Made by a program: the position numbers and the translations under genes
The notes under the pieces: model-generated
What the model saw: the letters and a program-made list of their open reading frames with translations, nothing else
Told to the model about the DNA's origin: nothing
Databases searched by the model: none
Shown here: piece after piece, positions 5,813 through 47,885 of the stretch
Position numbering within the stretch: the first letter of the stretch is position 1
Layout of the letters: each line of letters begins with the position of its first letter
DNA from: an uncultured bacterium
GTDB lineage: Bacteria; Verrucomicrobiota; Kiritimatiellia; RFP12; UBA1067
Direction: 5' to 3'
DNA: 64,000 bases
Assembly (NCBI GenBank): GCA_902799955.1
Contig: CADCCQ010000009.1
Span: 3,066 to 67,065, forward strand

Positions 5813-6767
<955 letters not shown>

Positions 6768-6771
<4 letters not shown>

Positions 6772-8015: not shown

Positions 8016-8028
8016 GGAGTGCAAGGGC

Positions 8029-9606: not shown

Positions 9607-9637
9607 CAATAGGAGCTCAAGTGAAAGGGGTACGAAG

Positions 9638-19851: not shown

Positions 19852-20805
19852 ATGTGCAATGTCGAGGTTGCATTGTGTCGGCATCCGCTACGTAAATCAA
19901 AGATGAGATATATGAACTACAAGGAATTCATACATCCCGAAGATGAAGCGGCGATGCGAAATCTGGAAGCAGTTCCTGGTTTTGACGCCGTGGCGCGTTT
20001 CATACTGGAGCATTATACGGAAGATTTGATGCACGGCCTCTACATGGCGCAGAATGTGCGCCTGTCGCCGACGCAACTTCCTGAGATTTACAACCTTCTG
20101 CCTCCGATATGCGGCAAGTTCGGTCTTGAGCTGCCAGAATTCTATTTGACGATGGATCCAGCGCCAAATGCCTGGACGATAGGAGACAAGAGGAAGTTTA
20201 TCGTCATCACGAGTGGCTTGCTGAATCATGTCACTGATAAAAAGGAACTACAGTCGATCATAGCCCATGAATGTGGGCATATACTTTGCCGACACGTGTT
20301 CTACAATACCATAGCCATGCTTTTAGTTAATTTTGGCGAGAGCCTTGGCTTTGGCAAGATTGTCCTTACGCCGATACTCCTGGCCATGAAGTACTGGCAG
20401 AGGCGCAGCGAACTTTCGGCAGACAGGGCCAGTGCGGTGTTCATTGGCGACTCTGATGTTCCGTGCCGTGCGCTTCTAAGAATATGCGGCGGGCCGGACA
20501 ATTTGACGAAGGACATCAATCTGCATGAGTATGCGGAGCAGGCGAAGTCCTATTATGCTCTTCTTGCAAACAGCAAATGGAACAAGTTTCTTCAAAACAT
20601 GGCCGTTATGAACGCTGAACATCCCTTTGCGGCAGTTCGCATAAACGAACTGCTGTCGTGGACGGGCAATGAGCAGTTTGCCAGTCTGAAAGAGGCGATT
20701 GCGAGCGCCGAGGTTGCCCCGATGTGCCCGAAGTGCGGTAGGCGCATATCCACCAAGGCAAAGTTTTGCAAGTTCTGTGGTAGCATTCTGAAAGGAGGAA
20801 GGTAA
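19852..20805 (+). CDS. M48-family zinc metalloprotease with C-terminal zinc ribbon
   Basis: HEXXH motif IAHECGHILCRH plus downstream SELSADR. The C-terminal motif is CPKCGRRISTKAKFCKFCG. In-frame alternative starts exist at 19903 and 19912. Confidence 0.7.
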   Translation: MCNVEVALCRHPLRKSKMRYMNYKEFIHPEDEAAMRNLEAVPGFDAVARFILEHYTEDLMHGLYMAQNVRLSPTQLPEIYNLLPPICGKFGLELPEFYLTMDPAPNAWTIGDKRKFIVITSGLLNHVTDKKELQSIIAHECGHILCRHVFYNTIAMLLVNFGESLGFGKIVLTPILLAMKYWQRRSELSADRASAVFIGDSDVPCRALLRICGGPDNLTKDINLHEYAEQAKSYYALLANSKWNKFLQNMAVMNAEHPFAAVRINELLSWTGNEQFASLKEAIASAEVAPMCPKCGRRISTKAKFCKFCGSILKGGR

Positions 20806-21044
20806 TGGATTTGCTGCAAAGGCTGGATGAACTAGTCCAGAAGTCGGCGTCATTCCAGAAGATCATGGAAGACGGTGTTGTTGATGATGTCGAGGTTGAA
20901 GAACAGGCAAGACTTGTTGACGCAATGCTGTCTGATCTGGAACGGACGTTGTCGCCTGCAGATTTCGCTCGTGTGACGGAGTTCATGGCGGAGCTTTCCG
21001 TGCTGCAGGTGATTATGCGCTACAACCAAATGGGAGGGCGGTGA
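20805..21044 (+). CDS. Small acidic hypothetical protein (79 aa)
   Basis: The start overlaps the M48 stop (TAATG) and the next gene starts 1 nt after its stop. No motif was recognised. Confidence 0.45.
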   Translation: MDLLQRLDELVQKSASFQKIMEDGVVDDVEVEEQARLVDAMLSDLERTLSPADFARVTEFMAELSVLQVIMRYNQMGGR

Positions 21045-21045
21045 C

Positions 21046-21543
21046 ATGGCATTCACTTCGACAAAGGTATTCATGGTCCCGGCAAATCGTATTCCAGACA
21101 TGACTCGGATGTTGGAGGCGGCGCTTCGCCTGGATGGATATGAGACGCGCAGTGACTCGCTGCTGGGCGGCGGTATGGTCGTGTCAATCACAAAGGGGGG
21201 ATTGTTCAAGGCGATCATCGGGATGAAGACGGCGCTCAAGGTGGAACTGCGCGCGGACAACGGGAACGTACTTGCAAAGACTAGCGTAGGCATCTGGGGG
21301 CACCAGATCGTGCCTACGATGATTATGTGGCTTTGGTTTTGGCCAGTTCTCATCACACAGATATGGGGGTTGGTACAGCAGAACCATCTGGATGCGCAAG
21401 TGATGGAGATACTGGCCAAGGCGGCGGAAAAGGATACAACTACAATGGATGGTCAACCGGCGGATGCGCCTGCATGCTTCTGCTCCGAGTGCGGCAAGCC
21501 AGTAGCCGGCAACTTCTGCTCTAATTGCGGTGCAAAGCTGTGA
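21046..21543 (+). CDS. Hypothetical membrane-associated protein with C-terminal zinc ribbon
   Basis: A hydrophobic segment (IVPTMIMWLWFWPVLITQIWGLV) is present. The C-terminal CSECGKPVAGNFCSNCG is the same ribbon type as on the M48 protein. Confidence 0.5.
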   Translation: MAFTSTKVFMVPANRIPDMTRMLEAALRLDGYETRSDSLLGGGMVVSITKGGLFKAIIGMKTALKVELRADNGNVLAKTSVGIWGHQIVPTMIMWLWFWPVLITQIWGLVQQNHLDAQVMEILAKAAEKDTTTMDGQPADAPACFCSECGKPVAGNFCSNCGAKL

Positions 21544-27600: not shown

Positions 27601-27742
27601 CATATCCGCCACGATCTTCATCGGGCTGGTTCTCCTTCCCGCGCTGTATGTCGCGGCGGAGTACCTTGATGGGAAGATCGGCGCCGCGCCCCTTCGCATC
27701 CGCAGCCGCCGTCCGCGTGGGGGAAATCAAAGGAAACAGTAA
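24656..27742 (+). CDS. RND efflux permease (AcrB/HAE family)
   Basis: 1028 aa with a 12-TM layout and two large periplasmic loops. Its start overlaps the adaptor gene by 4 nt. Confidence 0.8.
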   Translation: MIARGIVRHPRVTFALTALAVAVGLFCMRRLPLEVFPDVAPPTFQLVVHADGLDAVGASRSVAAPIEEAFADVPGVLYHSSSCTDDGICRCDVTFRSDVSQETAQSRIKELVRRIEGKLPASAASRGVEIVQGLNDTVALYAFSSSRGAVPRGFVSGALKSRLLGVDGVGRVEVSGERRRTVRIVLDTVKLSGLRISLSNVATKLSACRGRGERLREEKGDIVIEGLVNTLGDFGGVVIYEDANTGGRVLLKDISRIEVYDSPVDGRGLDGREVVMMRVRKRAGSNASDTAVRVKGLMEGLAKDFPEGVTCELVTDAASGARTFLHDMAITPLLALLLVGVVLLAFWRSFKLAVIPLMVAVVSIVSSFVLQWWFAFTFNALTVFGFVLVIGSLVDTALIVIERARIGMASGGQPPRQAMEDAVRSSFGVMFASTILVAVCYIPLFFCGGVASRLHLQFAFTACMALALSAVFALTLAPVVFALFVREPCKGGPSRGFSLMFPLRGWERLYLSVAGWFVRHPVFACVVVMAGLCCFLPLKSILPKVLFGKDMIDRAVVEVVLPPECGGDKVEHVCAEASAALKDMPDLKRVMFSVGEGELQGNCGNCGRLSVEFNQRLRPARANAVLSEIRERLSSIRDARIGVFVPSSVRGIGRFDGLEFSLCRHGGAADGLSDAARAFAAQIEGLDGVLSVEYAPAMFRRQAKVTFDHAKVAAFGVAPTAGEAAIQEAVMPKRLPAFGLADGPCDVMLVKSGGAVEMDVLEKIQLRAAGDALVPLAALGKVSMKPVPLVATHFNGVDSVAFVVRLAPGASPERLVQAIGDIQPPDGCTVAWSGVAVQENVNRGGTRILVGIALFAIYLLLAAWYESWTLPIPVVGAALVAILGSLLGLLVTGAPLNIYAQVALVVVVGVVVKLAVLIVGSARNRFAEGKSAVEAASESMRRTFLPVQMAAWTSLAGCVPLLFAVGLGTSEQFVLGVVAVFGISATIFIGLVLLPALYVAAEYLDGKIGAAPLRIRSRRPRGGNQRKQ

Positions 27743-27768
27743 ACGAGAATGTAAAGGAGGCACAGCAT

Positions 27769-29652: not shown

Positions 29653-29679
29653 TGGAGATCTACATAAAGGAGCACCATA

Positions 29680-33945: not shown

Positions 33946-33957
33946 GCGTGGCGGGCA

Positions 33958-36900: not shown

Positions 36901-37638
36901 GTGCCTGTGGCGGTGCCGGAGCTGGAGCGTGGCGTCTGGTGTGCTATAGACGGGACGAACGTCGCATCCAAGTCTTCCGTTGAATTGATGCCGGGCAAAC
37001 ACGCGCTTGAGTACGAGAGGTACGGATATGTGCGGCAGGGAACCAACTTTGTCGTCAAGGTTGGCGAGGAGAAGGTGGAAGTGCGCGGGCCTTGTCCATG
37101 GGAGATTGCAAAGGTAAGGGTTTCCGTGCCGAAACTGGAACGGGGTGTCGAATGTAGGATCGACGGCAAGAGCGTGGCAGAGGAAATTGACCTCGTCCCG
37201 GGCGGGTATTCATACGAGTATGTTCGGACAGGATTTAAGACGCAGGCCGATCGATTCGTAGTGATGGCAAATCACCCGATGAATCTGCCAGAACCGGGAG
37301 AATGGGTCATGGTGCCCAGTCCAAAAGCAGTGCCGTCAAGTCCCGATGTCCTGTCGCCGTCGTACAAGGAGGCACTGGAACGGTATGCATTTCAGGATTA
37401 TGGTGGTGCACTTGAGAAGTTCCACGCGGCGCTCAAGGAGGACTGCCGCCCTCGTGCGGATGACATGGATAAAATCGAGGATGCTTTCAAGAAGCGCCTT
37501 GAAGAGATAAATGGCCTGATAAATCGGACCAAGGCCGACATTTCGATTGGTCGGGACCCCAAACGCAGCCTGGATGACTTGGACAATGATCGAAAGACCC
37601 TCATCAAGTGGTATAATGAGCTAAAGGCAGCTCGGTAA
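33958..37638 (+). CDS. Membrane-spanning tandem Ser/Thr protein kinase (two Hanks-type kinase domains, one TM helix, PEGA-like repeats)
   Basis: Kinase 1: LGSGGEAKV, VALK, HRDIKPAN, DFGVAK, YMAPE. Kinase 2: GRGGFGEV, VAIKK, HRDIKPSN, DFGIVR, YAPPE. The TM helix is AWKSVIVVALVVASLGVATW. Four ~70-aa repeats and a helical tail follow. Confidence 0.8.
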   Translation: MGSVDTDILGGFRLLKELGSGGEAKVYKAVCVRNMHKIVPKGKVVALKIVYEHGADADGHWQKLQTRVKELMRLDNPYVVRYLGCFRERGQDGEKHVVVQEFLEGRTLKEQLALSRLGLDVDEGRRVVNQVLEGLDYTTGQGIYHRDIKPANVFLCADGGVKLIDFGVAKQVAANVTVTVSDNIRGTWNYMAPEFTSPSFSGDVRSDVFSVGVLLHEILVGTLPYADLNSLGMSGYYSRWSQQAAPDVPAIRVDPMAERLLIGVENILSVALARNPAARYASFRDFRRAFDRVEPVCTKGGGHTYQRLKFVGRGGFGEVFKARCQETGELVAIKKLLKPEYASRFRREAKIMRRLDDPCFVKFIDFFELRDGAFLVMRFLEGMPGGSLHDAIIRAGEKCRNDDNKDCGLPKALVLAAFERYARGLAVLHGRGIVHRDIKPSNLYYPEGHPDCVAIMDFGIVRAKDTTFTYGNVPCTPDYAPPEIVISGDRGEPAMDIFSLGLCMYEALTGGRKSYPTLASGTAGYNALCQRAKTMQEPNFDDCRVRADSELLELLQRMTAPDKSVRMNDANEVARELRRLFYRPSTAPDCPTTAVFGSSPDISTPIDAAKLLDWFKAWREKHPVEKPTPLPEPWPHPGPRKTAWKSVIVVALVVASLGVATWRVARLRYGKDDFVHPETRQDTGSLTETNPVQKVVAEVPTVKPVPDDYIKLKHQAFKNDFDIRMRDEPVTNRRDRIASAERLLRKAIVEDHLCTEGEAARFRAEIEAARKRVVGVLKNGSGLELVVDGRKLPAGVEHTFSFDDGEPIKRTMRLFGHDERPLPSNLDEKVMVVTTNDFNVSTVKVELPESLEGGVTCFFNGKQVGGAGLSLTPGSYECVYRREGYEEQRIAFDVLLGTGRSIPEPDHWKAKPVDVELPAFGKDVVCSVDGKPSSEVKRLMPGEHAVEYRRKGYFNQTIPFVARLSEPVSVPLPDREWRVRPVPVAVPELERGVWCAIDGTNVASKSSVELMPGKHALEYERYGYVRQGTNFVVKVGEEKVEVRGPCPWEIAKVRVSVPKLERGVECRIDGKSVAEEIDLVPGGYSYEYVRTGFKTQADRFVVMANHPMNLPEPGEWVMVPSPKAVPSSPDVLSPSYKEALERYAFQDYGGALEKFHAALKEDCRPRADDMDKIEDAFKKRLEEINGLINRTKADISIGRDPKRSLDDLDNDRKTLIKWYNELKAAR
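36484..37323 (+). repeat. Four tandem ~70-codon PEGA-like repeats inside the kinase gene
   Basis: Repeat starts are at 36484 (VKVELPES), 36694 (VDVELPAF), 36901 (VPVAVPEL) and 37114 (VRVSVPKL). Each contains a conserved C..(D/N)GK...L.PG.(Y/H)..(V/E)Y.R.G(Y/F) core. Confidence 0.7.
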
Positions 37639-37652
37639 GGAGATGTGCTGTC

Positions 37653-38828
37653 ATGGGCGAGAATCTTGAAGCTGCAAAATACGATGTATTCATCAGTTAC
37701 TCTAGACGGGATATGGGAAGTGTGCAGCCTGTTGTCGACCGGCTGAGGGCAGAGGGGTATAGTTGCTGGATGGACGTGAACGGCATTGAAAGTGGTGATG
37801 AATTCCGTTCAAAACTGGTTGATGCCATAGAGCGCTCCTGCATTGTGGTGTTCTTCTCGTCTGCTGATTCCAATGTGTCAAAATGGACCAGGCGGGAGCT
37901 TTCGGTTGCCGATGAATGTCACAAGCCGATAATTCCCGTCAGGCTTGACCACGCACCATATTCCAATGCCATCAAGCTTATTCTGACGGGCGTGGACTAC
38001 ATTGATTTCCAGGCGGTGGAATTGCGCATGGCGGCAACTGAGAGGTTGCTCAGAAGTGTCAAGGAGAAGACGGAAGATGTCTTGTCGGGACATACGGGGA
38101 TGAAGGGTTTGACCTTGCCCGGTGGTGTGTCAATGCGTTTTAGGTGGTGTCCGCCCGGGACGTTTATGATGGGGAGTCCGCAGACAGAGGAGGGGCATGC
38201 CCAAGATGAGATTCTACATCGCGTCACGCTTACAAAAGGCTTCTGGATGGGGGAGACCCCTGTGACGCAGAGGCAGTGGGAAGCCGTCATGGGTGACAAC
38301 CCTTCTGTTTGCCGGGGCGCGGATCATCCCGTTGAAGGGGTCTCGTGGCATGACTGCATGGATTTCATCAGAAAGGTGAACGAGCAGCAGAAATGCGCAC
38401 TGCGTCTGCCGACGGAGGCGGAATGGGAATATGCCTGTCGTGCCGAGACGAACGGACCATTTGGCGGGAATGGGGTCTTGTGCGAGATGGGGTGGTATAA
38501 TGACGACAGCTACGGCGAAATGCAACCATCGCGGTCGTCCCATCCTGTCAAGAAGAAAGAGCCTAACAAATGGGGCCTCTACGATATGCATGGGAATGTC
38601 TGGGAATGGTGCAGCGACTGGTACGGGGCGTATTCTGCGGAATCGGTCACAGACCCCATTGGGCCGCCCGAAGGGAAGCTGAAGATACGTCGCGGCGGTT
38701 CGTGGCAAGACGAGGCGATGGCATGTCGCTCCGCCTACCGTTTAGTGTTTTCGCCCGAGTCGCGGCACAGCCTCCTGGGTTTCCGTGTCGCATTCGATGC
38801 TGACGCATACGAGGAGAAGGAGAAATGA
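37653..38828 (+). CDS. TIR domain fused to an FGE-sulfatase (SUMF1/PvdO-type) domain
   Basis: TIR motifs: YDVFISYSRRD ... SKWTRRELSVA (conserved Glu). FGE-type motifs: FMMGSP, HRVTLTKGFWMGETPVTQRQWEAVMG, PVEGVSWHDCMDFI, RLPTEAEWEYACR, HGNVWEWCSDWY, RRGGSW...CRSAYR...GFRVAF. There is no signal peptide or TM helix. Confidence 0.8.
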   Translation: MGENLEAAKYDVFISYSRRDMGSVQPVVDRLRAEGYSCWMDVNGIESGDEFRSKLVDAIERSCIVVFFSSADSNVSKWTRRELSVADECHKPIIPVRLDHAPYSNAIKLILTGVDYIDFQAVELRMAATERLLRSVKEKTEDVLSGHTGMKGLTLPGGVSMRFRWCPPGTFMMGSPQTEEGHAQDEILHRVTLTKGFWMGETPVTQRQWEAVMGDNPSVCRGADHPVEGVSWHDCMDFIRKVNEQQKCALRLPTEAEWEYACRAETNGPFGGNGVLCEMGWYNDDSYGEMQPSRSSHPVKKKEPNKWGLYDMHGNVWEWCSDWYGAYSAESVTDPIGPPEGKLKIRRGGSWQDEAMACRSAYRLVFSPESRHSLLGFRVAFDADAYEEKEK

Positions 38829-39171: not shown

Positions 39172-39510
39172 ATGAAAATGATTACACTTAATGTTACGCG
39201 TGATAAATCACTTGTCGGAGCGGGAATGTCCTATCGCATTTTCATCAATGACAAGGAGGTTGCCAAACTAAGAATCGGCAAGACTTTCTCCTGCCAGTTG
39301 CCAGGCGAACAGTTTACATTGCGCGCTTCAATGGTTGGGAACGCATTGTCATTTCATAAAATCGGGAAGGAGGTCGCAGTATTCCCAGAATACAGTAAGT
39401 CGGGCGTGATTAACTGTAAATTGAGAACACGACAAAATTGGCTGGGTTTTCTTACGCTTGGGATGTTTCAGGCGATTGGCAGAACGGAAATTGAGGTGTT
39501 GTATCAATGA
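39172..39510 (+). CDS. Hypothetical protein (112 aa)
   Basis: Good RBS (aaaggaga) and a beta-rich sequence (YRIFINDKEVAKLRIGKTFSCQLPGEQFTL). No motif was recognised with confidence. Confidence 0.45.
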   Translation: MKMITLNVTRDKSLVGAGMSYRIFINDKEVAKLRIGKTFSCQLPGEQFTLRASMVGNALSFHKIGKEVAVFPEYSKSGVINCKLRTRQNWLGFLTLGMFQAIGRTEIEVLYQ

Positions 39511-39520
39511 GGATTGAACG

Positions 39521-41086
39521 ATGAAGTATTTGGTGATGTTTCTGTCCTGGGCGTTTGGCGTACTGACGGTTCTTTTCCTTGTGTTCATGTCAATGACGCT
39601 TCTGGACGTAGGATCGGCAGACATACCGATAGTATTGGAGAATACAGATGAATACGCCCGTGTCAAATGGGAATTGGAGGGACGTGATTTTGGGCAACCA
39701 ATCATGCTGGTCGTTAGTTATTTTCTGTTCGCCGTTACACATTCGCTTCATCATAGGCTACGAAAAAAGAAATGCGACACGCTCAACGTCGATGCCATAG
39801 AAGGGCCCTTCGTGCTTTATCTGCGCTCCTTTATCGCGGACAGGATAACATCCAGACGGATTTCTCTGTTTGCAGACATCCGTTCGGAGGAAGAGACTCT
39901 AGTTGATGTTCTTTCTGAAATTGCCCCGGTCTATGCAATCGGGGACCCCAAGGACAAGAAAATGCCCGTGGGAGCTTCGCGGATATATGTGGACGACGGG
40001 CACTGGAAGACCACTGTGGAGAAGTTGTCCCAAAAAGCCGTCGTTGTTGTTTTACGACTTGGGGAAACCGACAGTTTCTGGTGGGAAGTGGAAATGGCCG
40101 CACAGAAAGTCCCTCTTGAGAAACTGTTGTTTGTCGTGCCAGAATGCAAGACGTTCAGTAATGTCGCAACGCTATATAAGGTACTACTCGATAATAAAAT
40201 TGACATAAAATCGGCAGGAATCAGCATTGACAGGAAATCGAGGGGGTCAATTTCCAGTTTCATGTTCTTTGGTCGTGACGGAACTCCTGTCGCCAAATCG
40301 GTTAAAATTCCCAGATTTACGCAAATCGTTGTTTCATATGAAAACATACTGAGAAATGCGCTGGCCGAGTTCCGTGCCAAGTACGGATTGCATGCCAGAT
40401 GGGGTGCTGCCATAAGATGGGCGCAATTGCTCCAGATAGTTGTGGTTGGCAGTATGTTTCTTACATTTGTGTCCTTGGGCGTTAGAGATTTCACCAGATT
40501 GAACTGCCAAATGCCGTATGAACTGCTGGAGAAATGCGTTGAGTATCCAGAGTTTACGTCTAAATATTCCAATGATATAAATGGTTCATGCCTAATTTGT
40601 GCGATTGATGAATCTGTAAAAGGTTATTTATGGCTTGCCGACGAGAAGTATAAATTTATGTTATGCACTGAAGCAAAAGCTATTCGGGCAATGAGTCAAG
40701 GCGAACTTAGACAATTGTCAAAGGCACAAAAGAACTCTTTGCTAATGATTAAGAAATACGTTCCTGAATGCTATGATGAGTATGTCGGCATCCTAGCGGA
40801 GGCGGCGATTCTGTCAATTCAACGCCCTAAAGAGACAGAGGATCTAATAAAAGCATATAAGCGCAAGATTGATATGCTTCCGCAATGGATGATAGATTTT
40901 GAGATGAGTCTGCATGATGAATGTGACAACATGCTGATGCGGCTTTCCGACGAAGTTGTCAAACACATTGACGAAAGCAATATTGTCGAAACATTAAAGA
41001 TACTTCATAGTCAAACCATAAATGTTGGTAATACCTCAACTCAAGGGGAAAGTCAACCGTTGGATGAGGATTCGGCGGATATGTGA
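39521..41086 (+). CDS. Hypothetical three-TM membrane protein, possible divergent TIR-like/flavodoxin-fold cytoplasmic domain
   Basis: Two N-terminal TM helices, a basic stretch (HHRLRKKK) and a third TM helix around AIRWAQLLQIVVVGSMFLTFV. The intervening domain shows the strand-helix pattern FVLYLRSF ... PVYAIGDP ... AVVVVLRLGETDSFWWEVEMA. Confidence 0.45.
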   Translation: MKYLVMFLSWAFGVLTVLFLVFMSMTLLDVGSADIPIVLENTDEYARVKWELEGRDFGQPIMLVVSYFLFAVTHSLHHRLRKKKCDTLNVDAIEGPFVLYLRSFIADRITSRRISLFADIRSEEETLVDVLSEIAPVYAIGDPKDKKMPVGASRIYVDDGHWKTTVEKLSQKAVVVVLRLGETDSFWWEVEMAAQKVPLEKLLFVVPECKTFSNVATLYKVLLDNKIDIKSAGISIDRKSRGSISSFMFFGRDGTPVAKSVKIPRFTQIVVSYENILRNALAEFRAKYGLHARWGAAIRWAQLLQIVVVGSMFLTFVSLGVRDFTRLNCQMPYELLEKCVEYPEFTSKYSNDINGSCLICAIDESVKGYLWLADEKYKFMLCTEAKAIRAMSQGELRQLSKAQKNSLLMIKKYVPECYDEYVGILAEAAILSIQRPKETEDLIKAYKRKIDMLPQWMIDFEMSLHDECDNMLMRLSDEVVKHIDESNIVETLKILHSQTINVGNTSTQGESQPLDEDSADM

Positions 41087-41096
41087 CAATCTTGAA

Positions 41097-41234
41097 ATGA
41101 AAAGGGAACCAGGGATGGAGAGATCAATCATCAAGACTCATGTATTCGTCAGCTACGCTCGTAGTGATGTGACGGAAGTGGCTAACCTGCTTCAGCGGAG
41201 ACTTTGGGCGATATTTCCACGGGGAAGGGGTTGA
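41097..41234 (+). pseudogene. 45-codon fragment resembling the N-terminus of a TIR-domain gene
   Basis: Hand translation gives MKREPGMERSIIKTHVFVSYARSDVTEVANLLQRRLWAIFPRGRG*. A TIR betaA-type motif (VFVSYARSD) is present, but the ORF stops after 45 codons. Confidence 0.4.
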
Positions 41235-41238
41235 ATAA

Positions 41239-41376
41239 ATGACACCTAAACGAATCATCCTTGTGCGGCATGTGCGGTCGGCGGCGAATGACGATCCGAC
41301 CGTGTACAGCCGAGTGCCCGACTACAAGATTGAGTCTGTGGATGAGGGGCGCGAACAGTCTGGAGATCTTGCATGA
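41239..41376 (+). pseudogene. 45-codon fragment resembling the N-terminus of a histidine-phosphatase-superfamily gene (copy 1)
   Basis: Hand translation gives MTPKRIILVRHVRSAANDDPTVYSRVPDYKIESVDEGREQSGDLA*. The family RHG motif is degraded to RHV. A paralogous copy lies at 42989..43126. Confidence 0.4.
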
Positions 41377-41510
41377 ATGTTGTCGACAGAATGGCGCGGT
41401 TGGCGATGATCGCGCATAACGGCGTTAACCGAAAGGGACCAGGCAATAAGCCGTATATTGTTCATCCTCATGCCGTTGTGGTGATGTTGAAGGATATGCC
41501 GGTGCGATAA
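41373..41510 (+). pseudogene. 45-codon fragment resembling the N-terminus of an HD-domain (RelA/SpoT-type (p)ppGpp hydrolase-like) gene
   Basis: Hand translation gives MNVVDRMARLAMIAHNGVNRKGPGNKPYIVHPHAVVVMLKDMPVR*. Compare the canonical AHxGQxRKxxGxPYIxHPLxVAxIL. The ORF stops before the HD dyad. Its ATGA overlaps the preceding fragment. Confidence 0.4.
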
Positions 41511-41571
41511 TGAAGTCATGGCGATTTGTCCAAGAAAACGTTTGTAAGTTCAAACAGGAAAAGAACAACTG

Positions 41572-41718
41572 ATGGAATATGGCATCTACATCTCATATCG
41601 CCGCGAGGGGACTCTATCGGTTTTGCAATTGCCTCTTAAGTTAGTGACGCCCTATGCGGAATATATTCGGCATGAGAGGTTCTGTTGCGAGAAGCGCGGA
41701 GTGTGTTCCGCATTTTAG
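41572..41718 (+). pseudogene. 48-codon fragment resembling the N-terminus of the TIR paralogs at 43895/45712
   Basis: Hand translation gives MEYGIYISYRREGTLSVLQLPLKLVTPYAEYIRHERFCCEKRGVCSAF*. IYISYRREG matches the IFISYRREGG of the downstream TIR genes. Confidence 0.35.
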
Positions 41719-41735
41719 TTGCCGCATTTTAGTTG
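41708..41735. repeat. Perfect 14-bp tandem duplication (ccgcattttagttg x2)
   Basis: Read directly from the sequence: 41708-41721 is identical to 41722-41735. It lies about 50 nt upstream of the ATPase start. Confidence 0.9.
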
Positions 41736-41786
41736 TGTTTTGGTACGAATTATGGTATACTTGTGTGCAAAATAGAGGATTTGAAC

Positions 41787-42992
41787 ATGATAGATCGTCC
41801 TTATGGACTTAAGTGGCTTTGGCAATGGAAAGACCAGGAGCCGATAAAAGTCGTCACCGGCATACGCCGGTGCGGCAAATCAACATTGCTTTCAATGTTT
41901 CAGGGGCAATTGCGCGAAGACGGCATCAACGCCGATCAGATTGTCGCCATCAACTTTGAGCATCCGGATTTCATGGAACTTGACAATTCTGTCGCCGTAT
42001 GGAAATACTTGAAACCGAAAATTGTTCAGGGACGAAATACATACGTCTTTCTTGATGAAATTCAACGTGTAAGGGACTTTGAAAAGGTGGTTGACGGACT
42101 TTTTGTGCTGCCTGACGTTGATGTGTACATAACGGGGTCCAATGCCTATCTTCTGTCTGGGGAATTGGCTACATATCTGTCCGGTCGCTATGTCGCGCTC
42201 CATTTGACGCCGCTGTCTTTCCGCGAGTACTATGATGGCGTTGCCTCGTCCGAGTCGCCGGAACGTGCATATCGCGACTATCTTGCATTCAGTTCGTTCC
42301 CCCACAATCGCGCATGGGACAAGGAGCCGGGGCTTGTCGACGATTACATGGAGGGCATCTTAAACACGGTTCTACGAAAGGACGTCATAAACAGAAATGC
42401 ATTTCGCAATCCTGTTGCGCTTGATGCCGTGGCACGATACGTCTTCGGCAACATCGGGAATCTCACGAGCATGCGGAATATCGCGACAGTCCTGAAGTCC
42501 GAAGGTGTTTCAATTGATGCTTCTTCAGTCGAGGACTATGTCTCCGCCCTATGTGGGGCGTATCTAGCCTACAAGGCAGTCCCTAAAGATCTGCGCGGCA
42601 GGGAATTGCTCAAATCGGGCGCAAAATACTATGTCGTGGACATGGGATTGCGTCGGTTTATTCTCGGAAGCCGTGCATTCGACATGGGGCGCGTACTTGA
42701 GAATGTCATATATCTTGAACTTGCCAGGCGTCATCAAGAAGTCTATGTCGGCAGGGTGGATGGACGCGAGGTCGATTTTGTCACGCGGGACGGAGGTGAT
42801 GTCAGATACTGGCAGGTGGCGGAGACATTACGTGGTGAAGGTGTCCGCGACAGGGAGTTCGCTCCGCTAAAGGCGATTGCCGACCATTGTCCCAAGACGA
42901 TTCTATCCCTTGATCTTGACCCCGTTGGCTACGACATCGGCATCAAGACTATGAATGCGCTTGATTTTCTGCTGGAGAAGGGAGAGGAATGA
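41787..42992 (+). CDS. AAA_14/DUF4143-family ATPase
   Basis: N-terminus MIDRPYGLKWLWQWKDQEPIKVVTGIRRCGKSTLL (Walker A) and Walker B-like VFLDEIQRV. An RBS (gagga) lies 9 nt upstream of 41787. The track ORF starts earlier, at 41733. Confidence 0.7.
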   Translation: MIDRPYGLKWLWQWKDQEPIKVVTGIRRCGKSTLLSMFQGQLREDGINADQIVAINFEHPDFMELDNSVAVWKYLKPKIVQGRNTYVFLDEIQRVRDFEKVVDGLFVLPDVDVYITGSNAYLLSGELATYLSGRYVALHLTPLSFREYYDGVASSESPERAYRDYLAFSSFPHNRAWDKEPGLVDDYMEGILNTVLRKDVINRNAFRNPVALDAVARYVFGNIGNLTSMRNIATVLKSEGVSIDASSVEDYVSALCGAYLAYKAVPKDLRGRELLKSGAKYYVVDMGLRRFILGSRAFDMGRVLENVIYLELARRHQEVYVGRVDGREVDFVTRDGGDVRYWQVAETLRGEGVRDREFAPLKAIADHCPKTILSLDLDPVGYDIGIKTMNALDFLLEKGEE

Positions 42993-43126
42993 CGCTGAAG
43001 CAAACAATTCTTGTACGGTATGGTCGGTTGGTGGCGAATGACGATCCGACCATGTATAGCCGTATCCCCGACTACAAGATCGAGCCTGTCAAACAGGGTT
43101 CGTGGCCTGGAGGGTATGAGACATGA
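42989..43126 (+). pseudogene. 45-codon histidine-phosphatase-like N-terminal fragment (copy 2)
   Basis: Hand translation gives MTLKQTILVRYGRLVANDDPTMYSRIPDYKIEPVKQGSWPGGYET*. It is the same length as the copy at 41239 and has the same ATGA junction to the next ORF (MNAVG vs MNVVD). RHG is degraded to RYG. Confidence 0.4.
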
Positions 43127-43869
43127 ATGCTGTCGGTGATAATGGCCGTATGAAATATGATGTCTTCATTTCGGCGAAAAGAGAGGATTACAATCTTGCC
43201 AAGGGCGTTTTCAGGTTTTTGGTGGACAATGGATTGTCTGTTTTCTTGGCAAATGCGGAATTGAGGAAGATTGGAATGTCTCAATATGCAGAAGCTATAG
43301 ACATGGCCTTGGATGCAGCAAAGCACATGATTGTCGTTGCGTCGTGCATAGACCACATTCGCTCGTCTTATGTGCATTATGAATGGTCGGTGTTCAGTAA
43401 TGACCTGAAGAGTGGGTATAGGTCAGGTAATTTGCTAACCATTCTGACCGATGAAGTGCATTTGAGGGAGTTGCCGCCCAGTTTGAGACATCAGCAATCA
43501 TATTGCATTGATACATATCAGCAAGAGATACTAGGATATTTGGGCAAGGGTGAAGATGAAGTCTTTCCGGTAAAACAAAGGCTGACAAGAAATGGAAACA
43601 AACAGGCGAGGCGTGCTATTAATTTAATGTTGATAGTGGGGGTGTTAATTGGTTTTTGTAGTGGAATTATAGTGGAGATTTGGCGATCGAGATTTCCATC
43701 TTCTCAGGTCACAAGTGTGCCTACTGATTTATTGAAAGCGAAAGAAGGGGAAACCAGGCGTATGGAAGCGATTTATGAAAGGGCGCAGAAGCAAAATGTG
43801 GAAAACAAACTTGACAAGGCATTGCAACCACTAGTGCCCGTTGTTGATCGACATGAAATGACAGAGTGA
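43123..43869 (+). CDS. TIR-domain protein with one C-terminal-proximal TM helix
   Basis: TIR motifs: KYDVFISAKREDYNLAKGVFRFL ... MIVVAS ... SSYVHYEWSVFSN (conserved Glu). The TM helix is AINLMLIVGVLIGFCSGIIVEIW, preceded by basic residues. Confidence 0.7.
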   Translation: MNAVGDNGRMKYDVFISAKREDYNLAKGVFRFLVDNGLSVFLANAELRKIGMSQYAEAIDMALDAAKHMIVVASCIDHIRSSYVHYEWSVFSNDLKSGYRSGNLLTILTDEVHLRELPPSLRHQQSYCIDTYQQEILGYLGKGEDEVFPVKQRLTRNGNKQARRAINLMLIVGVLIGFCSGIIVEIWRSRFPSSQVTSVPTDLLKAKEGETRRMEAIYERAQKQNVENKLDKALQPLVPVVDRHEMTE

Positions 43870-43894
43870 AAAATGCCAATGTGGAAAGGGAAAT

Positions 43895-44281
43895 ATGAAT
43901 AAGTCACAGCAATACGACATCTTCATTTCATACCGTCGCGAGGGCGGGTATGACACGGCGCAACTGCTGTATGACAGGCTGACGCAGATGCGCTATCGCG
44001 TATCGTTCGACCTGGAGACATTGCGAGGCGGAAAGTTCAACACGCAACTTTACAAGCGCATTGAGCAATGCTCGGACGTGCTTGTCGTCATGAGCAGGGA
44101 TTCTCTGAACCTTCGCGAGAACCCGGAGGACGACTGGTTCCGACTTGAGATTGCCCATGCGCTGAAGCACAAGAAGAACATCGTCCCAGTGTTCCTAAGG
44201 GACTTCAAGTTCCCGCAGAAAGGGGAGCTGCCCGAAGACATAGCCGACCTGGTGAACTATAGCATTTCGACAGTGTACTGA
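43895..44281 (+). CDS. TIR-domain ORF (128 aa); 5' part of a TIR-TM-PDZ-like gene split by a 35-nt insertion
   Basis: YDIFISYRREGGYDTAQLLYDRL ... DDWFRLEIAHAL. It is nearly identical in protein sequence to residues 8-127 of the 45712 paralog and then diverges into SISTVY*. Confidence 0.7.
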   Translation: MNKSQQYDIFISYRREGGYDTAQLLYDRLTQMRYRVSFDLETLRGGKFNTQLYKRIEQCSDVLVVMSRDSLNLRENPEDDWFRLEIAHALKHKKNIVPVFLRDFKFPQKGELPEDIADLVNYSISTVY

Positions 44282-44331
44282 AGCGAATATGCAGGAACTT
44301 CAAGGCGAAGCCCCATCGGCACAAATGGCCG

Positions 44332-45678
44332 GTGGTCGCCGCCATTGCCGCTGCCCTTCTTGTCGGCGCGGGGATTGGAGTCTGGCTGAAGGCAGACAAG
44401 ATTTTCCCCTATCCTTTTACCAGAGAGGCAAGACAGGAGGTTGATGCATACTATGGAACTGTGTTGCGGATTGGGGCCGCCTATAATGAATTTCTGTCCG
44501 CAAAGATGGAACTTCTTGACAAGGTCAGTTTGAGTATAGAATCTGAAGACAAGGCGCCATATCAAGCCGCCGTACCAGAGTTCTTGCATCGACGCGGAAT
44601 GGCGAGAAAAAATCTCGACGCCGCTGCTGAGGCGTTGGAAAGAGTTGTCAAGGAGAACCCCGGATTGCGTGTGGATCGCGCATACATACCGAATTTCCTA
44701 GAGGGGGTACGACAGGAATTCGGCGATGCGGATGAGTGGGCTGCTCTTTTCAGCCTCCCGTGTGATCCTGATTACGTATGCTCAAAGGCAAACAGGATTA
44801 GGATTGTCATGCTCAATCGCAAGGAGATTGAGATATATGCCGACGTGTTTGCCTATGGCGTCATGTTCCTTTTCGACATGATTTCGCCGGAAGCGCTCGC
44901 TGACTTTAGGGAAGTCGCGGCAAAACAGTGGACGATGTTGAAGCGGTTCAGAGGCGAATGGCTGTCAGATCAAAAGCAGATTGAACAGAATGGCGAGGCT
45001 TCGCTGAACCAGCTTCAAGAAGTGGTCGAGGAGCTTGCGCAGATAATAGGAAATACGGCACAGGCCCTGGAGCAGGCTAAGCGCAACACCAAGCAAATGA
45101 GAATAGACGCGGGAATGTCGCCGGAACAAGCCGAGAGAATCGGCAAGAAGGAGGAGGAGCTTGAGAATTTGAAGGCGCAGAGGAAAGAGACGCAAAAAGC
45201 GATAGCGGATACGCGAGAGCGGATTCGCAAGAAGTTTGCGCCGAAGGATGATGACGACATTGGAATACTTTGGGGCAAAGCGTTGCGGTTCATGTCGGTT
45301 AATATGCCTGAAGACGCCAAGTTATGCATTGATGCGTTACGTCGGCGCAACACTTCGGAGTTTCCGCCCGTGGCGCTTGACACGGCGGAGGCGATATTCT
45401 TGTCTAAGGAACCGTTGCCTTTTGTGGACGGCGTCCTGGTTTGCGCATACGAACCGCCGGCGACGTCTCATGCCATATTCAAAGTCGGAGACGTCATCAC
45501 GAAAGTGAACGAGAAGCCATGTCGGCGTTATGAAGACTATCGTAACAAGGCCGGCAACACCTACACGATATACCGTAGGAACGCGAAGGGCCAGTTTGAC
45601 AAGCTGACGGCAACCATGCCTGAAGGCCAGCCGCGTGTGGCTCTGGTGGATTTGACGGAGAAGGGCTCTGGCAAGTAA
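44332..45678 (+). CDS. TM-coiled-coil-PDZ-like ORF; 3' part of the split TIR paralog (GTG start in the track)
   Basis: It is colinear with residues ~141-626 of the 45712 paralog. The TM helix is VVAAIAAALLVGAGIGVWL. The C-terminus GVLVCAYEPPATSHAIFKVGDVITKVNEKPC...YTIYRRNAKGQFDKLT is PDZ-like. Confidence 0.6.
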   Translation: MVAAIAAALLVGAGIGVWLKADKIFPYPFTREARQEVDAYYGTVLRIGAAYNEFLSAKMELLDKVSLSIESEDKAPYQAAVPEFLHRRGMARKNLDAAAEALERVVKENPGLRVDRAYIPNFLEGVRQEFGDADEWAALFSLPCDPDYVCSKANRIRIVMLNRKEIEIYADVFAYGVMFLFDMISPEALADFREVAAKQWTMLKRFRGEWLSDQKQIEQNGEASLNQLQEVVEELAQIIGNTAQALEQAKRNTKQMRIDAGMSPEQAERIGKKEEELENLKAQRKETQKAIADTRERIRKKFAPKDDDDIGILWGKALRFMSVNMPEDAKLCIDALRRRNTSEFPPVALDTAEAIFLSKEPLPFVDGVLVCAYEPPATSHAIFKVGDVITKVNEKPCRRYEDYRNKAGNTYTIYRRNAKGQFDKLTATMPEGQPRVALVDLTEKGSGK

Positions 45679-45711
45679 ACAGACGGAATAAAGACATTGG
45701 AGGGTGAACAC

Positions 45712-47592
45712 ATGGGAGAAGCACAGCAATACGACATCTTCATTTCGTACCGCCGCGAGGGCGGATATGATACGGCGCAGTTGCTGTACGACCGGCTGAC
45801 GCAGATGCGCTACCGCGTCTCGTTCGACCTGGAGACGTTGCGCGGCGGGAAGTTCAACACGCAGCTCTACCGGCGCATCGAGCAATGCTCCGACGTGCTT
45901 GTCATCATGAGCAGGGATTCTCTTAATCTTCGCGAGAACCAGGAGGACGACTGGTTCCGGCTGGAGATCGCCCATGCACTGAAGCACAAGAAGAACATCG
46001 TCCCAGTGTTCCTAAGGGACTTCAAGTTCCCGCAGAAAGGGGAGCTGCCCGAAGACATAGCCGACCTGGTGAACTATAACTTCAAGGCGAAGCCCCATCG
46101 GCGCAGGTGGCCTGTGGTCGCCGCAATCGCCGCTGCTCTTCTCATCGGTGCGGGAATCGGGGTTTGGTTGAAGTCCGACAAGATTTTCCCATATCCATTC
46201 ACGACAGAGCAGAAGAAACAGGTGGAATCGCTTGCGGCCAACATCATGCTAGTCGGCACTGCCTACAACGACTACCTGTCCGCAGAAAATGACCTGCTTG
46301 TGGCAGCTAGACTCAGTGTGGAGGCCGGAAGCCGGAAAGCGTTTGATGATGCGGCACCGACCTATCTGCATAGGCTGCGGAAAGCGCGAGACAGATTTGC
46401 TTCGGCGTTTACGGCGACTTCTGACTTCGCCAGGCATGTCAGCAACATGCCGATTGACTATGCGGGGATGCAGGTGTTTCTCGAGGGGTTGAAGCAGGAA
46501 CTCCAGCTTGCGGATGATGAGGTGCCGAGTCTGGAACGGGTATGCAACCCGGACTTCCCTTGCGAGAAAGCGGATAGGCTGCGGATGATCAACCACAAGC
46601 AAAAGGATTGGAAACTTCGGTCCGACCTGTTCTCCGTGTCGGTGATGGGAATATTCTGCAATATCGCCCCGGAGGCATTGACGGATTTCAAGAAGGTCGC
46701 GGGAGAATGGATTCACATCCGCCTTCTTCACGATCCATGGCTCCGCGATGAAAAGGAAATTGAGCGCAAAATGGAAGCGCTGTGCAATGAGTTGGCGGCT
46801 GTTGTGGGAGAGATGCAGACGATCCTCGGCAATCAGAATTCTGCACTTGCGAAAGAAACGCAGAAGTTCCGCCATGATATGGCGGAGATTGGCATGTCGT
46901 CCGATCAAGTTGAGAAGATGCTGGCAGCGGAGCGTACGCTTGCGGATATTAGGGGTCTCATTGATACGACGAAAAAACTGCCGGAACAAGAACTTGCCCT
47001 CTATAAGAAGCAATTGATCGAAGCTGGCATGACAGAGGCCCAGGCAGATTCGCTAGTGGGGAAGTTCCGAAAACTCGCCGAACAGAAGCTCGCGTTGTCG
47101 TCGGCGCAAGAACAACTGGCAGAGGCACATGACAGGCTCCGTGAGAAGTTCGCGCCGAGGGATGATGACGACATCGGGATCCTCTGGGGCAAGGCGTTGC
47201 GGTTCATGTCGGTTAATATGCCGGAGGAGGCGAAGCGGTGTTCCGATGTTCTGCGTCGGCGCAATACGCCGGATTTCCCGCCATCGGCGATTGACACGGC
47301 GGAGGCGATTATTCTGTCTAAAGGCGCGTTGCCGTTTGTGGGTGGTGTCTTGGTTTGCTCATACGAACCACCGGCTACGTCTCATGCGATATTCAAAATC
47401 GGAGACGTCATCACGGAAGTGAACGAGAAACCATGTCAGTATTTCGAGGATTACAGCAGCAAGACCGGCAACACCTACACGATATACCGTAGGAACGCAA
47501 AGGGCGAGTTTGACAAGCTGACGGCAACCATGCCCGAGAACCAGCCGCGCGTGGCTCTGGTGAATCTTACGGAGAAAGGCGACGGCAAGTAA
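45712..47592 (+). CDS. TIR-TM-coiled-coil-PDZ-like membrane protein (intact paralog)
   Basis: An RBS (ggaggg) lies 7 nt upstream of the ATG at 45712; the track start at 45697 is also possible. The order is TIR (YDIFISYRREGG, DDWFRLEIAHAL), basic patch KAKPHRRR, TM helix WPVVAAIAAALLIGAGIGVWL, a helical region of about 330 aa, then a PDZ-like end GDVITEVNEKPC. Confidence 0.75.
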   Translation: MGEAQQYDIFISYRREGGYDTAQLLYDRLTQMRYRVSFDLETLRGGKFNTQLYRRIEQCSDVLVIMSRDSLNLRENQEDDWFRLEIAHALKHKKNIVPVFLRDFKFPQKGELPEDIADLVNYNFKAKPHRRRWPVVAAIAAALLIGAGIGVWLKSDKIFPYPFTTEQKKQVESLAANIMLVGTAYNDYLSAENDLLVAARLSVEAGSRKAFDDAAPTYLHRLRKARDRFASAFTATSDFARHVSNMPIDYAGMQVFLEGLKQELQLADDEVPSLERVCNPDFPCEKADRLRMINHKQKDWKLRSDLFSVSVMGIFCNIAPEALTDFKKVAGEWIHIRLLHDPWLRDEKEIERKMEALCNELAAVVGEMQTILGNQNSALAKETQKFRHDMAEIGMSSDQVEKMLAAERTLADIRGLIDTTKKLPEQELALYKKQLIEAGMTEAQADSLVGKFRKLAEQKLALSSAQEQLAEAHDRLREKFAPRDDDDIGILWGKALRFMSVNMPEEAKRCSDVLRRRNTPDFPPSAIDTAEAIILSKGALPFVGGVLVCSYEPPATSHAIFKIGDVITEVNEKPCQYFEDYSSKTGNTYTIYRRNAKGEFDKLTATMPENQPRVALVNLTEKGDGK

Positions 47593-47627: not shown

Positions 47628-47885
47628 ATGATGACTCAAAAGGAACTACATGATGAATTCTGGCTTCTGACGAAGAGCGTACTTCAGGACTCGCGGATAG
47701 ATGCCGCCGAGGCCACGGTGTTGAAGCGCTGGTTGGAGGAACATCAGCAAGGAGATGAGTTTGACTACTTGATCGGCAAGTTGTCTGAACTCCTCTCCGA
47801 CAAATATGTGGATCGCAATGAATCCAGGATTGTCGTTGATGCGCTCGGACGTGTCCTTGCGCAACTTCGCAGTCAACATGAATAG
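47628..47885 (+). CDS. Small helical hypothetical protein (85 aa), faint TerB-like pattern
   Basis: RBS (aaaggaa). DSRIDAAEATVLKRWL...DRNESRIVVDAL is reminiscent of TerB-type helical bundles, but this is weak. Confidence 0.35.
   Translation: MMTQKELHDEFWLLTKSVLQDSRIDAAEATVLKRWLEEHQQGDEFDYLIGKLSELLSDKYVDRNESRIVVDALGRVLAQLRSQHE

Follow-up and report, generated by a model that had tools for sequence, protein, structure and literature searches.

Thoeris (types I–XI) is the bacterial system that most resembles the locus reported here: in both, at least one TIR gene with variable non-TIR parts adjoins a gene for a domain of the type that binds cyclic ADP-ribose (cADPR). The locus lies in a 64,000-nucleotide (nt) stretch, hereafter the window, of contig CADCCQ010000009.1 from an uncultured bacterium of the Kiritimatiellia (assembly GCA_902799955.1). 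Three consecutive loci in it encode TIR proteins with one transmembrane (TM) helix, and the two long ones, paralogs A and B, belong to a family in which the helix is followed by a helical region and a C-terminal PDZ domain (TIR-TM-PDZ family). Genes for proteins with a ryanodine receptor (RyR) domain accompany such TIR genes in three phyla, a pairing that suggests, as far as gene content can tell, an undescribed signalling system.

The likeness to Thoeris extends to the catalytic Glu, which is kept, and to an island with a defence-type setting. In contrast to Thoeris, however, the TIR domains are of the SARM1/TIR_2 type and are not ThsB equivalogs (NCBIfam ThcB4, 41.7 bits vs 220), the sensor is predicted to be a transmembrane protein with an extracytoplasmic PDZ ectodomain, and the candidate effector carries a RyR-like domain, not SLOG, Macro or another described type. 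Because the scores fall short of the curated ThsB models, the cluster lies outside the described Thoeris types. This agrees with a preliminary description of the locus, which had set these proteins apart from the soluble ThsB-type TIRs; in PADLOC, ThsB matches are at the domain level only. RyR, PF02026 and PDZ are not mentioned in the text, or in the part of the supplements available to us, of a survey of 29 Thoeris types. The "ion channel" effector of Thoeris type X (Sorek-lab survey), considered from its published description, pairs with a ThsB-type TIR in Vibrio and was set aside as a counterpart.

The animal SARM1/CD38-cADPR-RyR pathway is comparable in that SARM1/TIR-1 is the closest solved TIR, that the small RyR protein of the window matches Repeat12 of RyR1/2/3, and that a TIR protein and a RyR-domain membrane protein are genetically linked here. 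The bacterial membrane protein differs from the animal receptors in having three TM helices and a Rossmann-like domain and no homology to the RyR channel pore, whereas SARM1 is soluble or mitochondrion-associated and carries ARM and SAM domains; that cADPR directly binds Repeat12 is itself unproven for the animal receptors. According to two preprints of 2026, phage-encoded RyR-domain proteins defeat Thoeris by nanomolar binding of 2'cADPR, 3'cADPR and cADPR, or by cleavage of 2'cADPR/3'cADPR (PMC13232231; 10.64898/2026.06.04.730250), and host-encoded RyR proteins linked to TIR genes are not discussed in either preprint. The small RyR protein belongs to the same family (PF02026) as the phage proteins RyDEP and RyR Tad gp68 (Pectobacterium phage CB1) and keeps the ligand residues H, W, H and D, but its gene is chromosomal, is co-transcribed with host TIR genes, and encodes a domain that is also found fused to a membrane protein.

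In predicted topology, the long proteins resemble Toll-like receptors, being single-pass proteins with a cytoplasmic TIR domain, of a kind that generally acts on oligomerisation, and an outward sensor part. The order of domains is reversed, however, with an N-terminal TIR that keeps the catalytic Glu and is of the enzymatic, not the scaffold, type. The ectodomain is helical with a PDZ domain, and no LRR match was found in it, either in the window or in the family. The resemblance is thus in topology only and implies no common ancestry of the full architecture. With DegS, DegP and RseP the proteins share the PDZ subtype and the predicted location outside the cytoplasmic membrane, whereas they have no protease domain and their output domain is the cytoplasmic TIR.

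Architecture and predicted topology of the TIR-TM-PDZ family

About 100 full-length homologs of paralog B were found, with lengths of 590-660 amino acids (aa); nearly all are metagenomic and none bears a functional name. Among 1.84 billion clusters at 50% identity, the ectodomain retrieved 156 representatives with E <=0.001; most of these matches fall in the C-terminal two thirds of ~600-aa proteins, which indicates the same architecture. Named genomes with relatives are metagenome-assembled genomes (MAGs) from gut, rumen or faeces, affiliated with Verrucomicrobia UBA3841, Lachnospiraceae, Oscillospiraceae, other Clostridia, Bacteroidales, Alistipes and Victivallaceae.

Exactly one TM-like segment was predicted in 71 of 74 homologs. 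Over 15 residues, Lys and Arg together average 5.6 before the helix and 2.0 after it; the count before is the higher one in 67 of the 74 homologs, and the reverse was seen in none. Signal peptides were absent from the TIR-TM proteins. Because of this charge bias, the N-terminal position of the TIR domain and the absence of a signal peptide, the TIR domain is placed by the positive-inside rule in the cytoplasm, and the C-terminal ~470 aa are predicted to lie outside, as the preliminary description had proposed.

The intact TIR domains of the family are nearest to the SARM1/TIR-1 NADases (E 1.6e-21). Their DWFRLEI aligns with DWVHKEI of SARM1, where the catalytic Glu, which we take to be E642, sits in the WVHKE motif, and this Glu is invariant in the family; in paralog B the TIR domain carries the DDWFRLEIAHAL motif. 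The TIR calls and the conserved Glu reported earlier for the three loci are borne out by scores above the gathering score of Pfam TIR_2 (Table 1) and by the alignments.

An AlphaFold model of the TM helix and ectodomain, built from the family alignment, has a mean predicted local distance difference test score (pLDDT) of 88.5 and consists of long helices over ~320 aa, short helical hairpins and a five-strand beta domain. When the profile of the last ~95 aa was compared with the PDB, only PDZ domains were matched (E 5.5e-8 to 1e-3), led by DegP/DegQ/HtrA (E 5.5e-8 to 1e-4) and including the RseP type (5e-4). The model of this part (pLDDT 91.9) likewise has PDZ domains as its top Foldseek matches (HtrA PDZ 7l71, probability 0.99, TM-score 0.54, E 0.034), none of them at E <=0.001. 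Pfam PDZ_6 (gathering threshold 27) is matched by 11 of 17 family members (best E 1.9e-5); in the window, paralog A scores 16.2 bits and paralog B gives no match. Judged by its profile, the C-terminal beta domain is a PDZ-like domain of the periplasmic-protease type. The PDZ-like end given in the preliminary description is hence supported by the PDB profiles, whereas the Pfam model stays below threshold in the window itself.

The two long paralogs are mosaics. Between the intact paralogs (P0020 vs P0002), protein identity is 95% over TIR and TM helix, 34% over the middle ectodomain and 82% over the C-terminal hairpins and PDZ domain; the TIR domains of the window copies are 91% identical in amino acid sequence. 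At the DNA level (43895-45678 vs 45697-47592), identity is 78-100% in the TIR part, 70% in the block of the TM helix, 43-55% in the middle and 78-85% at the 3' end. Such a pattern suggests that gene conversion has acted on the ends, or that the middle ectodomain has been swapped or has diversified; it would be compatible with a recognition surface that varies while the signalling ends on either side stay conserved.

The first of the three loci encodes a shorter protein of 248 aa. It matches TIR_2 with E 9e-8 and 33 bits (gathering score 28), and its TIR fold, like that of a TIR protein encoded upstream with a formylglycine-generating-enzyme (FGE) domain (TIR-FGE), is complete including betaE/alphaE. 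Glu87, in YVHYEWSV (nt 43369-43392), occupies the catalytic position and does not vary across an alignment of 19 sequences, among them TIR-FGE and members of the long family. A single strong TM helix (residues 166-184) is preceded by six Lys or Arg in 15 residues and followed by two. The tail, earlier estimated at ~60 aa and in fact 64 aa long, is poorly conserved among ~240-aa homologs, one of which comes from a Kiritimatiellae MAG. With these features the protein is more aptly seen as a TIR tethered to the membrane, with a tail that is not conserved, than as a receptor.

NCBIfam and PADLOC hold no family-level model for the TIR-TM-PDZ family, and no described system with this architecture was found in the literature. 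Defence-island surveys probably missed the family because it is small, unannotated and confined to poorly studied anaerobes. From its sequences and their surroundings, it appears to be a rare, unannotated family. Its genes seem to be one of several TIR "sensor" types that can take each other's place in a gene neighbourhood conserved among anaerobes of gut and rumen and so far undescribed. The same two TIR modules, at 55-92% TIR identity, also occur fused to other C-terminal domains (P0090, P0093, P0095, P0100, P0105-P0112; P0134-P0164); these exchangeable partners are Macro, Sel1, FGE-sulfatase, MORN, LRR, EF-Tu domains 2/3, Zn ribbon and YARHG. The same habitats thus hold a large repertoire of TIR proteins whose non-TIR parts can be exchanged.

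RyR-domain genes beside the TIR genes

We collected 49 loci with relatives, in which genes were called crudely and then clustered; 43 of them are non-redundant and contain a full-length family member, and flanks of <=10 kb were considered. The commonest neighbour family takes two forms, a stand-alone RyR protein of ~100 aa and a larger, unannotated one (610-795 aa) in which N-terminal TM helices are followed by a central GxGxxG region and, at the C-terminus, a RyR-like domain. A RyR-domain gene lies in the flank of 25 of the 43 loci. In 14 of these the distance is at most 300 bp; the two genes then mostly point the same way, and in many cases they overlap by a few bases. The RyR-linked loci span Bacillota, Bacteroidota and Verrucomicrobiota/Kiritimatiellae, and a hidden Markov model (HMM) search added at least one more. 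Conversely, all three membrane RyR homologs examined from other contigs adjoin a small RyR gene, and two of the three also adjoin other TIR architectures (TIR-Sel1, TIR-AAA_16-TPR and TIR-RHS).

Both forms are encoded in the window, the small one 4 kb and the membrane one ~20 kb from the TIR-TM loci, and the start of the small RyR gene (38825) is overlapped by the stop of the TIR-FGE gene. The earlier statement that no ThsA-like effector is nearby is therefore not upheld, since the two genes represent the commonest neighbours of the family across three phyla.

The small protein (103 aa) matches RyR1/2/3 in the PDB with E 1e-21 to 1e-58 and the Bacteroides thetaiotaomicron structure 3NRT with 9e-33, and over residues 37-82 it shares 50% identity with a characterised sponge, gp68 of Pectobacterium phage CB1. 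In an alignment of 11 sequences (gp68, four stand-alone and six membrane-fused), H129, W132 and H154 of RyR Tad are invariant and D171 is present in most; the window protein keeps the ligand residues of gp68 as an H-x-x-W motif, a second His and an Asp.

The membrane protein (638 aa), which we consider the candidate effector, is 40% identical to the product of a gene beside a TIR-TM-PDZ gene in another locus (L007). The RyR-like domain of this large form aligns with the stand-alone RyR family (hhalign probability 97.8%, E 1.2e-12), and its profile matches RyR repeats (1.3e-11) and the B. thetaiotaomicron RyR protein (1.5e-5) in the PDB. Five membrane RyR proteins were scanned against Pfam without a significant match, the C-terminus of the 638-aa protein remaining below threshold. 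The Rossmann-like call is drawn only from the GxGxxG motif and weak PDB matches (NmrA and prephenate dehydrogenase, E 0.3-0.4).

Further genes that recur near the family encode an M48 peptidase, an 80-100-aa protein, a ~170-aa Zn-ribbon protein and other large TIR proteins, and at some loci an HD_4 phosphohydrolase. In the window, where the full set is represented, a tightly packed accessory cassette of such genes precedes the candidate effector at the beginning of the low-GC island (Table 1), and its families also occur beside TIR genes in at least six other loci (L002, L003, L019, L021, L039 and L049). On a further contig (L053, ENA ERZ1749157 NODE_1481), the region 6680-9769 near a membrane RyR homolog/small RyR pair carries a restriction-endonuclease-like gene, YoeB/RelB and ParE-type toxin-antitoxin pairs and a staphylococcal-nuclease-like gene, a defence-island or mobile-element setting.

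Proposed mechanism and its alternatives

The reading that we tentatively favour, while giving it somewhat less than an even chance, is a Thoeris-like system in which an external cue would be passed by the TIR proteins, through an NAD-derived signal, to the RyR-domain membrane effector. An extracytoplasmic cue (contact with a phage or damage to the envelope, perhaps in the form of a peptide C-terminus that the PDZ domain binds) would cluster the receptor, and clustering of the ectodomains by this ligand would bring the TIR domains together; TIR enzymes require oligomerisation for activity. The clustered TIR domains would turn NAD+ into a signal derived from ADP-ribose (ADPR), of the cADPR type. 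This signal would bind the C-terminal RyR-like domain of the 3TM-Rossmann-RyR protein, which may then alter membrane permeability or ion flux and arrest the cell in a Thoeris-like abortive response, while the stand-alone RyR protein might buffer, hydrolyse or terminate the signal. The diverse TIR proteins would accordingly be interchangeable sensors or signal generators that share the 3TM-Rossmann-RyR protein as effector, and the TIR-TM-PDZ proteins their outward-looking variant. We infer this route from the observed domain calls, topology bias, conserved Glu, linkage to RyR genes and conserved ligand-binding residues. The context is supportive: the genes lie in a low-GC island with a PADLOC defence-candidate gene, and modular TIRs are typical of immune sensors.

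A wider proposal, which we regard as doubtful, is that these are transmembrane TIR receptors whose fast-evolving helical ectodomain, with its PDZ domain, senses an outside cue and whose cADPR-type messenger gates a Repeat12-type membrane protein. Together with this partner they would then correspond, in prokaryotes, to the animal SARM1/CD38-cADPR-RyR pathway, might even be its evolutionary source, and would form a new Thoeris-like class whose effector domain is the one that phages borrowed as an anti-Thoeris sponge. To our knowledge, the characterised bacterial TIR immune sensors all detect intracellular events; with a sensor facing outside, NAD-based immune signalling could start before, or without, phage entry. 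The conserved RyR pairing provides a specific and testable partner. A host membrane protein with a RyR domain would explain the origin of the phage RyR domain, and it would give a tractable bacterial model for the old question of whether cADPR acts directly on Repeat12 of ryanodine receptors.

Several observations weigh against the Thoeris-like route. As many as 18 of the 43 loci, mostly those of the most distant relatives, have no RyR gene in the flank, and on one contig with a membrane RyR homolog no Pfam-annotated TIR gene was found within 8 kb. The membrane RyR gene of the window is located 20 kb upstream of the TIR genes, with RND efflux, two-partner secretion and kinase genes in between, and both long TIR genes are lesioned at the TIR/TM junction. 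We know of no RyR-domain protein characterised as an effector, those studied so far being phage anti-defence sponges or hydrolases. The helical ectodomain yielded no significant match in Foldseek searches of the PDB and viral structures, only generic helical ones (best E 0.2-0.4); PADLOC and NCBIfam have no model for the membrane RyR, M48, Zn-ribbon or small proteins; and the family is known from sequences and predicted structures alone.

For this window, and compatibly with the other readings, the cluster may be decaying and without function, the long paralogs being pseudogenes or crippled alleles; we think this possible but on the unlikely side. Metagenome contig L001 is 99.99% identical to the window over 35.7-57.6 kb (21.9 kb), with one mismatch and two gaps, and in it both long genes are intact, encoding proteins of 601 aa (ortholog of A) and 645 aa (ortholog of B). 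The two gaps are a 22-nt deletion that shifts the frame of paralog A (CAGGGCGTCACGGCGTCGCAGG) and a 57-nt deletion that removes 19 aa from paralog B (QGVTASQEHFDSVLKRICR). Both begin at one identical nucleotide, directly after GTGAACTAT and directly 3' of a ~120-nt stretch that is 100% identical between the paralogs; no flanking microhomology was found, and both deleted segments start with CAGGGCGTC and end with GCAG(G/A). The lost segment QGVTASQEHFDSVLKRICR is present in 16 of 16 aligned homologs and aligns with NGIKWSHEYQEATIEKIIR of SARM1, that is, with betaE/alphaE, the last strand and helix of the TIR fold. A complete TIR fold including betaE/alphaE is consequently lacking from both long window copies and present in those of L001.

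The architecture described earlier for the long paralogs (TIR, one TM helix, helical sequence and PDZ) holds for the family, whereas paralog A is not a single open reading frame (ORF); its listed downstream ORF (44332-45678, 448 aa) opens with a GTG inside the TM helix. The count of four intact TIR ORFs and two remnants in the island needs a similar correction. The remnants are indeed found, at 41133-41198 and 41575-41672, but because of the frameshift in A and the 19-aa loss in B, two of the TIR ORFs are intact, one is internally deleted and one is frameshifted. Decay is further indicated by three gene fragments at 41.1-41.7 kb and by ORF 47628-47885, read as the truncated N-terminus of a 614-aa gene of L007. 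On the other hand, the genes for the 248-aa TIR, TIR-FGE, small RyR and membrane RyR proteins are all intact, and neither long gene has a substitution elsewhere relative to the intact contig, so any inactivation must be very recent. Deletions at the same nucleotide beside an identical stretch could be an assembly or polishing artefact, and no record of the shortened protein versions exists outside the 178,941-nt contig to which the window belongs (P0001 is 100% identical to paralog B). The lesions may thus reflect a real, very recent inactivation, which would leave the long paralogs inactive here, or an assembly or polishing error.

In another view, which we consider unlikely, the TIR-TM-PDZ proteins would be self-contained suicide receptors that deplete NAD+, and the RyR proteins would only regulate them, mopping up or hydrolysing ADPR-type by-products or preventing self-activation. 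The TIR domain is of the type of SARM1, an NAD+ consumer; known RyR-domain proteins are sponges or glycosidases; the stand-alone RyR gene often follows directly 3' of the TIR gene, as an antitoxin gene might; and the 18 loci without a nearby RyR gene would be accounted for. The large RyR protein is harder to fit, since its conserved fusion with three TM helices and a Rossmann-like region exceeds the needs of a sponge, and it accompanies many unrelated TIR architectures, as a shared effector would.

A role in housekeeping signalling for envelope stress or cell physiology, not in immunity, seems to us decidedly unlikely. The PDZ domain would read unfolded C-termini of envelope proteins, as in DegS/RseP, and the TIR messenger would tune a RyR transporter or channel together with membrane proteases. 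The proximity of the PDZ domain to DegP/DegQ/HtrA and RseP, the recurrent neighbours encoding membrane or periplasmic proteases (M48, PrsW and FtsH-like AAA-M41) and the lack of a match to known defence models agree with such a role. However, the distribution is patchy and strain-variable, the island is low in GC and strewn with pseudogene debris, the C-terminal modules of the TIR proteins are extensively swapped, and toxin-antitoxin and restriction genes stand beside one related locus, whereas core stress pathways are rarely so mobile or decay-prone.

Finally, bacterial Tcp proteins are TIR proteins and the organisms here are associated with animal guts or rumens, but Tcp-like virulence or commensalism factors that disturb animal Toll-like receptor signalling in the gut are very improbable and were rejected on topology, the proteins having no signal peptide and an N-terminal TIR on the positive-inside face, thus in the bacterial cytoplasm, and in addition keeping the catalytic Glu and being linked to nucleotide-binding RyR domains, not to secretion signals.

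Island setting and other genes

The flanks of the window have a GC content of 65-68%, and the island, at ~20 to 48 kb, one of 45-58%. All island genes are on the + strand, and the TIR-TM loci occupy its final 4.5 kb (Table 1). For paralog B, which is open from TTG 45697, ATG 45712 is the likely start.

Table 1 Features of the TIR/RyR locus, in coordinates of the window (GA, gathering score; KD, Kyte-Doolittle; K+R, Lys plus Arg)
Feature	Position (nt)	Strand	Details
Accessory cassette 5' of the candidate effector	19852..21543	+	M48 peptidase with Zn ribbon 19852-20805; 79-aa protein 20805-21044; 165-aa Zn-ribbon protein 21046-21543
Candidate effector, 638 aa	21635..23551	+	3 N-terminal TM helices; Rossmann-like region with GFGSQG (22502-22531); C-terminal RyR-like domain (~23228-23548)
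TIR-FGE protein (formylglycine-generating-enzyme-type lectin fold)	37653..38828	+	TIR_2 1e-23, 84.4 bits vs GA 28; FGE-sulfatase 3e-47
Stand-alone RyR (Repeat12-type) protein, 103 aa	38825..39136	+	Pfam RyR 113 bits vs GA 27.4
Pseudogene fragments	41133..41672	+	TIR N-terminal fragment 41133-41198; HD_4 phosphohydrolase fragment 41373-41507; TIR fragment 41575-41610 with C-terminal end 41649-41672
AAA_14/DUF4143 ATPase among the TIR genes	41733..42992	+	Pfam AAA_14 and DUF4143; PADLOC defence candidate PDC-S01, E 1.6e-135
Short TIR-TM protein, 248 aa	43123..43869	+	TIR ~residues 10-135; TM helix nt 43618-43674; 64-aa variable tail
Paralog A, N-terminal piece: TIR, 128 aa, ending at premature frameshift stop	43895..44281	+	TIR_2 52.1 bits vs GA 28
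Paralog A lesion: 22 nt absent vs L001, frame shifted	44260..44261	.	Zero substitutions in surrounding 10.3 kb
Paralog A remainder, shifted frame	44296..45678	+	NFKAKPHRHK basic patch; TM helix 44326-44388; helical ectodomain; PDZ 45427-45654
Paralog B, 626 aa: TIR, TM, helical ectodomain, PDZ	45712..47592	+	TIR_2 54.5 bits vs GA 28
Paralog B lesion: 57 nt absent vs L001, in-frame loss of 19 aa	46077..46078	.	Same nucleotide position as lesion in A
Paralog B TM helix (WPVVAAIAAALLIGAGIGVWL), KAKPHRRR before	46108..46170	+	KD score 2.43; K+R 5 upstream, 3 downstream
Paralog B PDZ domain (predicted)	47341..47568	+	Profile vs PDB PDZ domains E 5.5e-8; AlphaFold pLDDT 91.9

The TIR-FGE gene named in the preliminary description is confirmed by both of its domain matches. 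No template/variable repeat pair of a diversity-generating retroelement acting on the FGE domain was found in 19-48.5 kb. The window contains no tRNA genes, so that no integration landmark for the island was found, and a tblastn search against plasmids gave a single TIR-level match and thus no sign of plasmid carriage.

Among the pseudogene fragments, the second TIR remnant corresponds to an intact 182-aa ORF in other assemblies (P0197-P0200), and the HD_4 gene is intact in L007, next to a TIR-TM-PDZ gene. The AAA_14/DUF4143 gene is bracketed by a 111-nt direct repeat, 77% identical, at 41238-41348 and 42988-43098, which suggests its insertion into, or duplication with, an older intergenic or small-ORF segment. 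Directly 3' of the small RyR gene, 39172-41086 holds two unannotated genes, for proteins of 112 aa and 521 aa. The latter (39521-41086) has TM helices at residues 4-22 and 303-321, and a homolog adjoins the membrane RyR gene in L002; it was compared with the membrane RyR family and is not related to it.

Between the two halves of the TIR/RyR set, 23574-37638 is occupied by unrelated-looking genes, including a HlyD/AcrB-type resistance-nodulation-division (RND) efflux pair and a two-partner secretion pair (a ShlB-type transporter and a 1421-aa TpsA-like protein). A 1226-aa protein encoded in this segment combines two Ser/Thr kinase domains with a single TM helix and repeats at its C-terminus, and matches PADLOC mad6 and PD-T4-6. 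Downstream of paralog B, ORF 47628-47885 (85 aa) starts with MMTQKELHDEFWL. An unannotated 614-aa protein whose gene immediately follows the TIR-TM-PDZ gene in L007/L008 has the same N-terminus, and the ORF probably represents a relative, truncated or diverged, of another component of the system.

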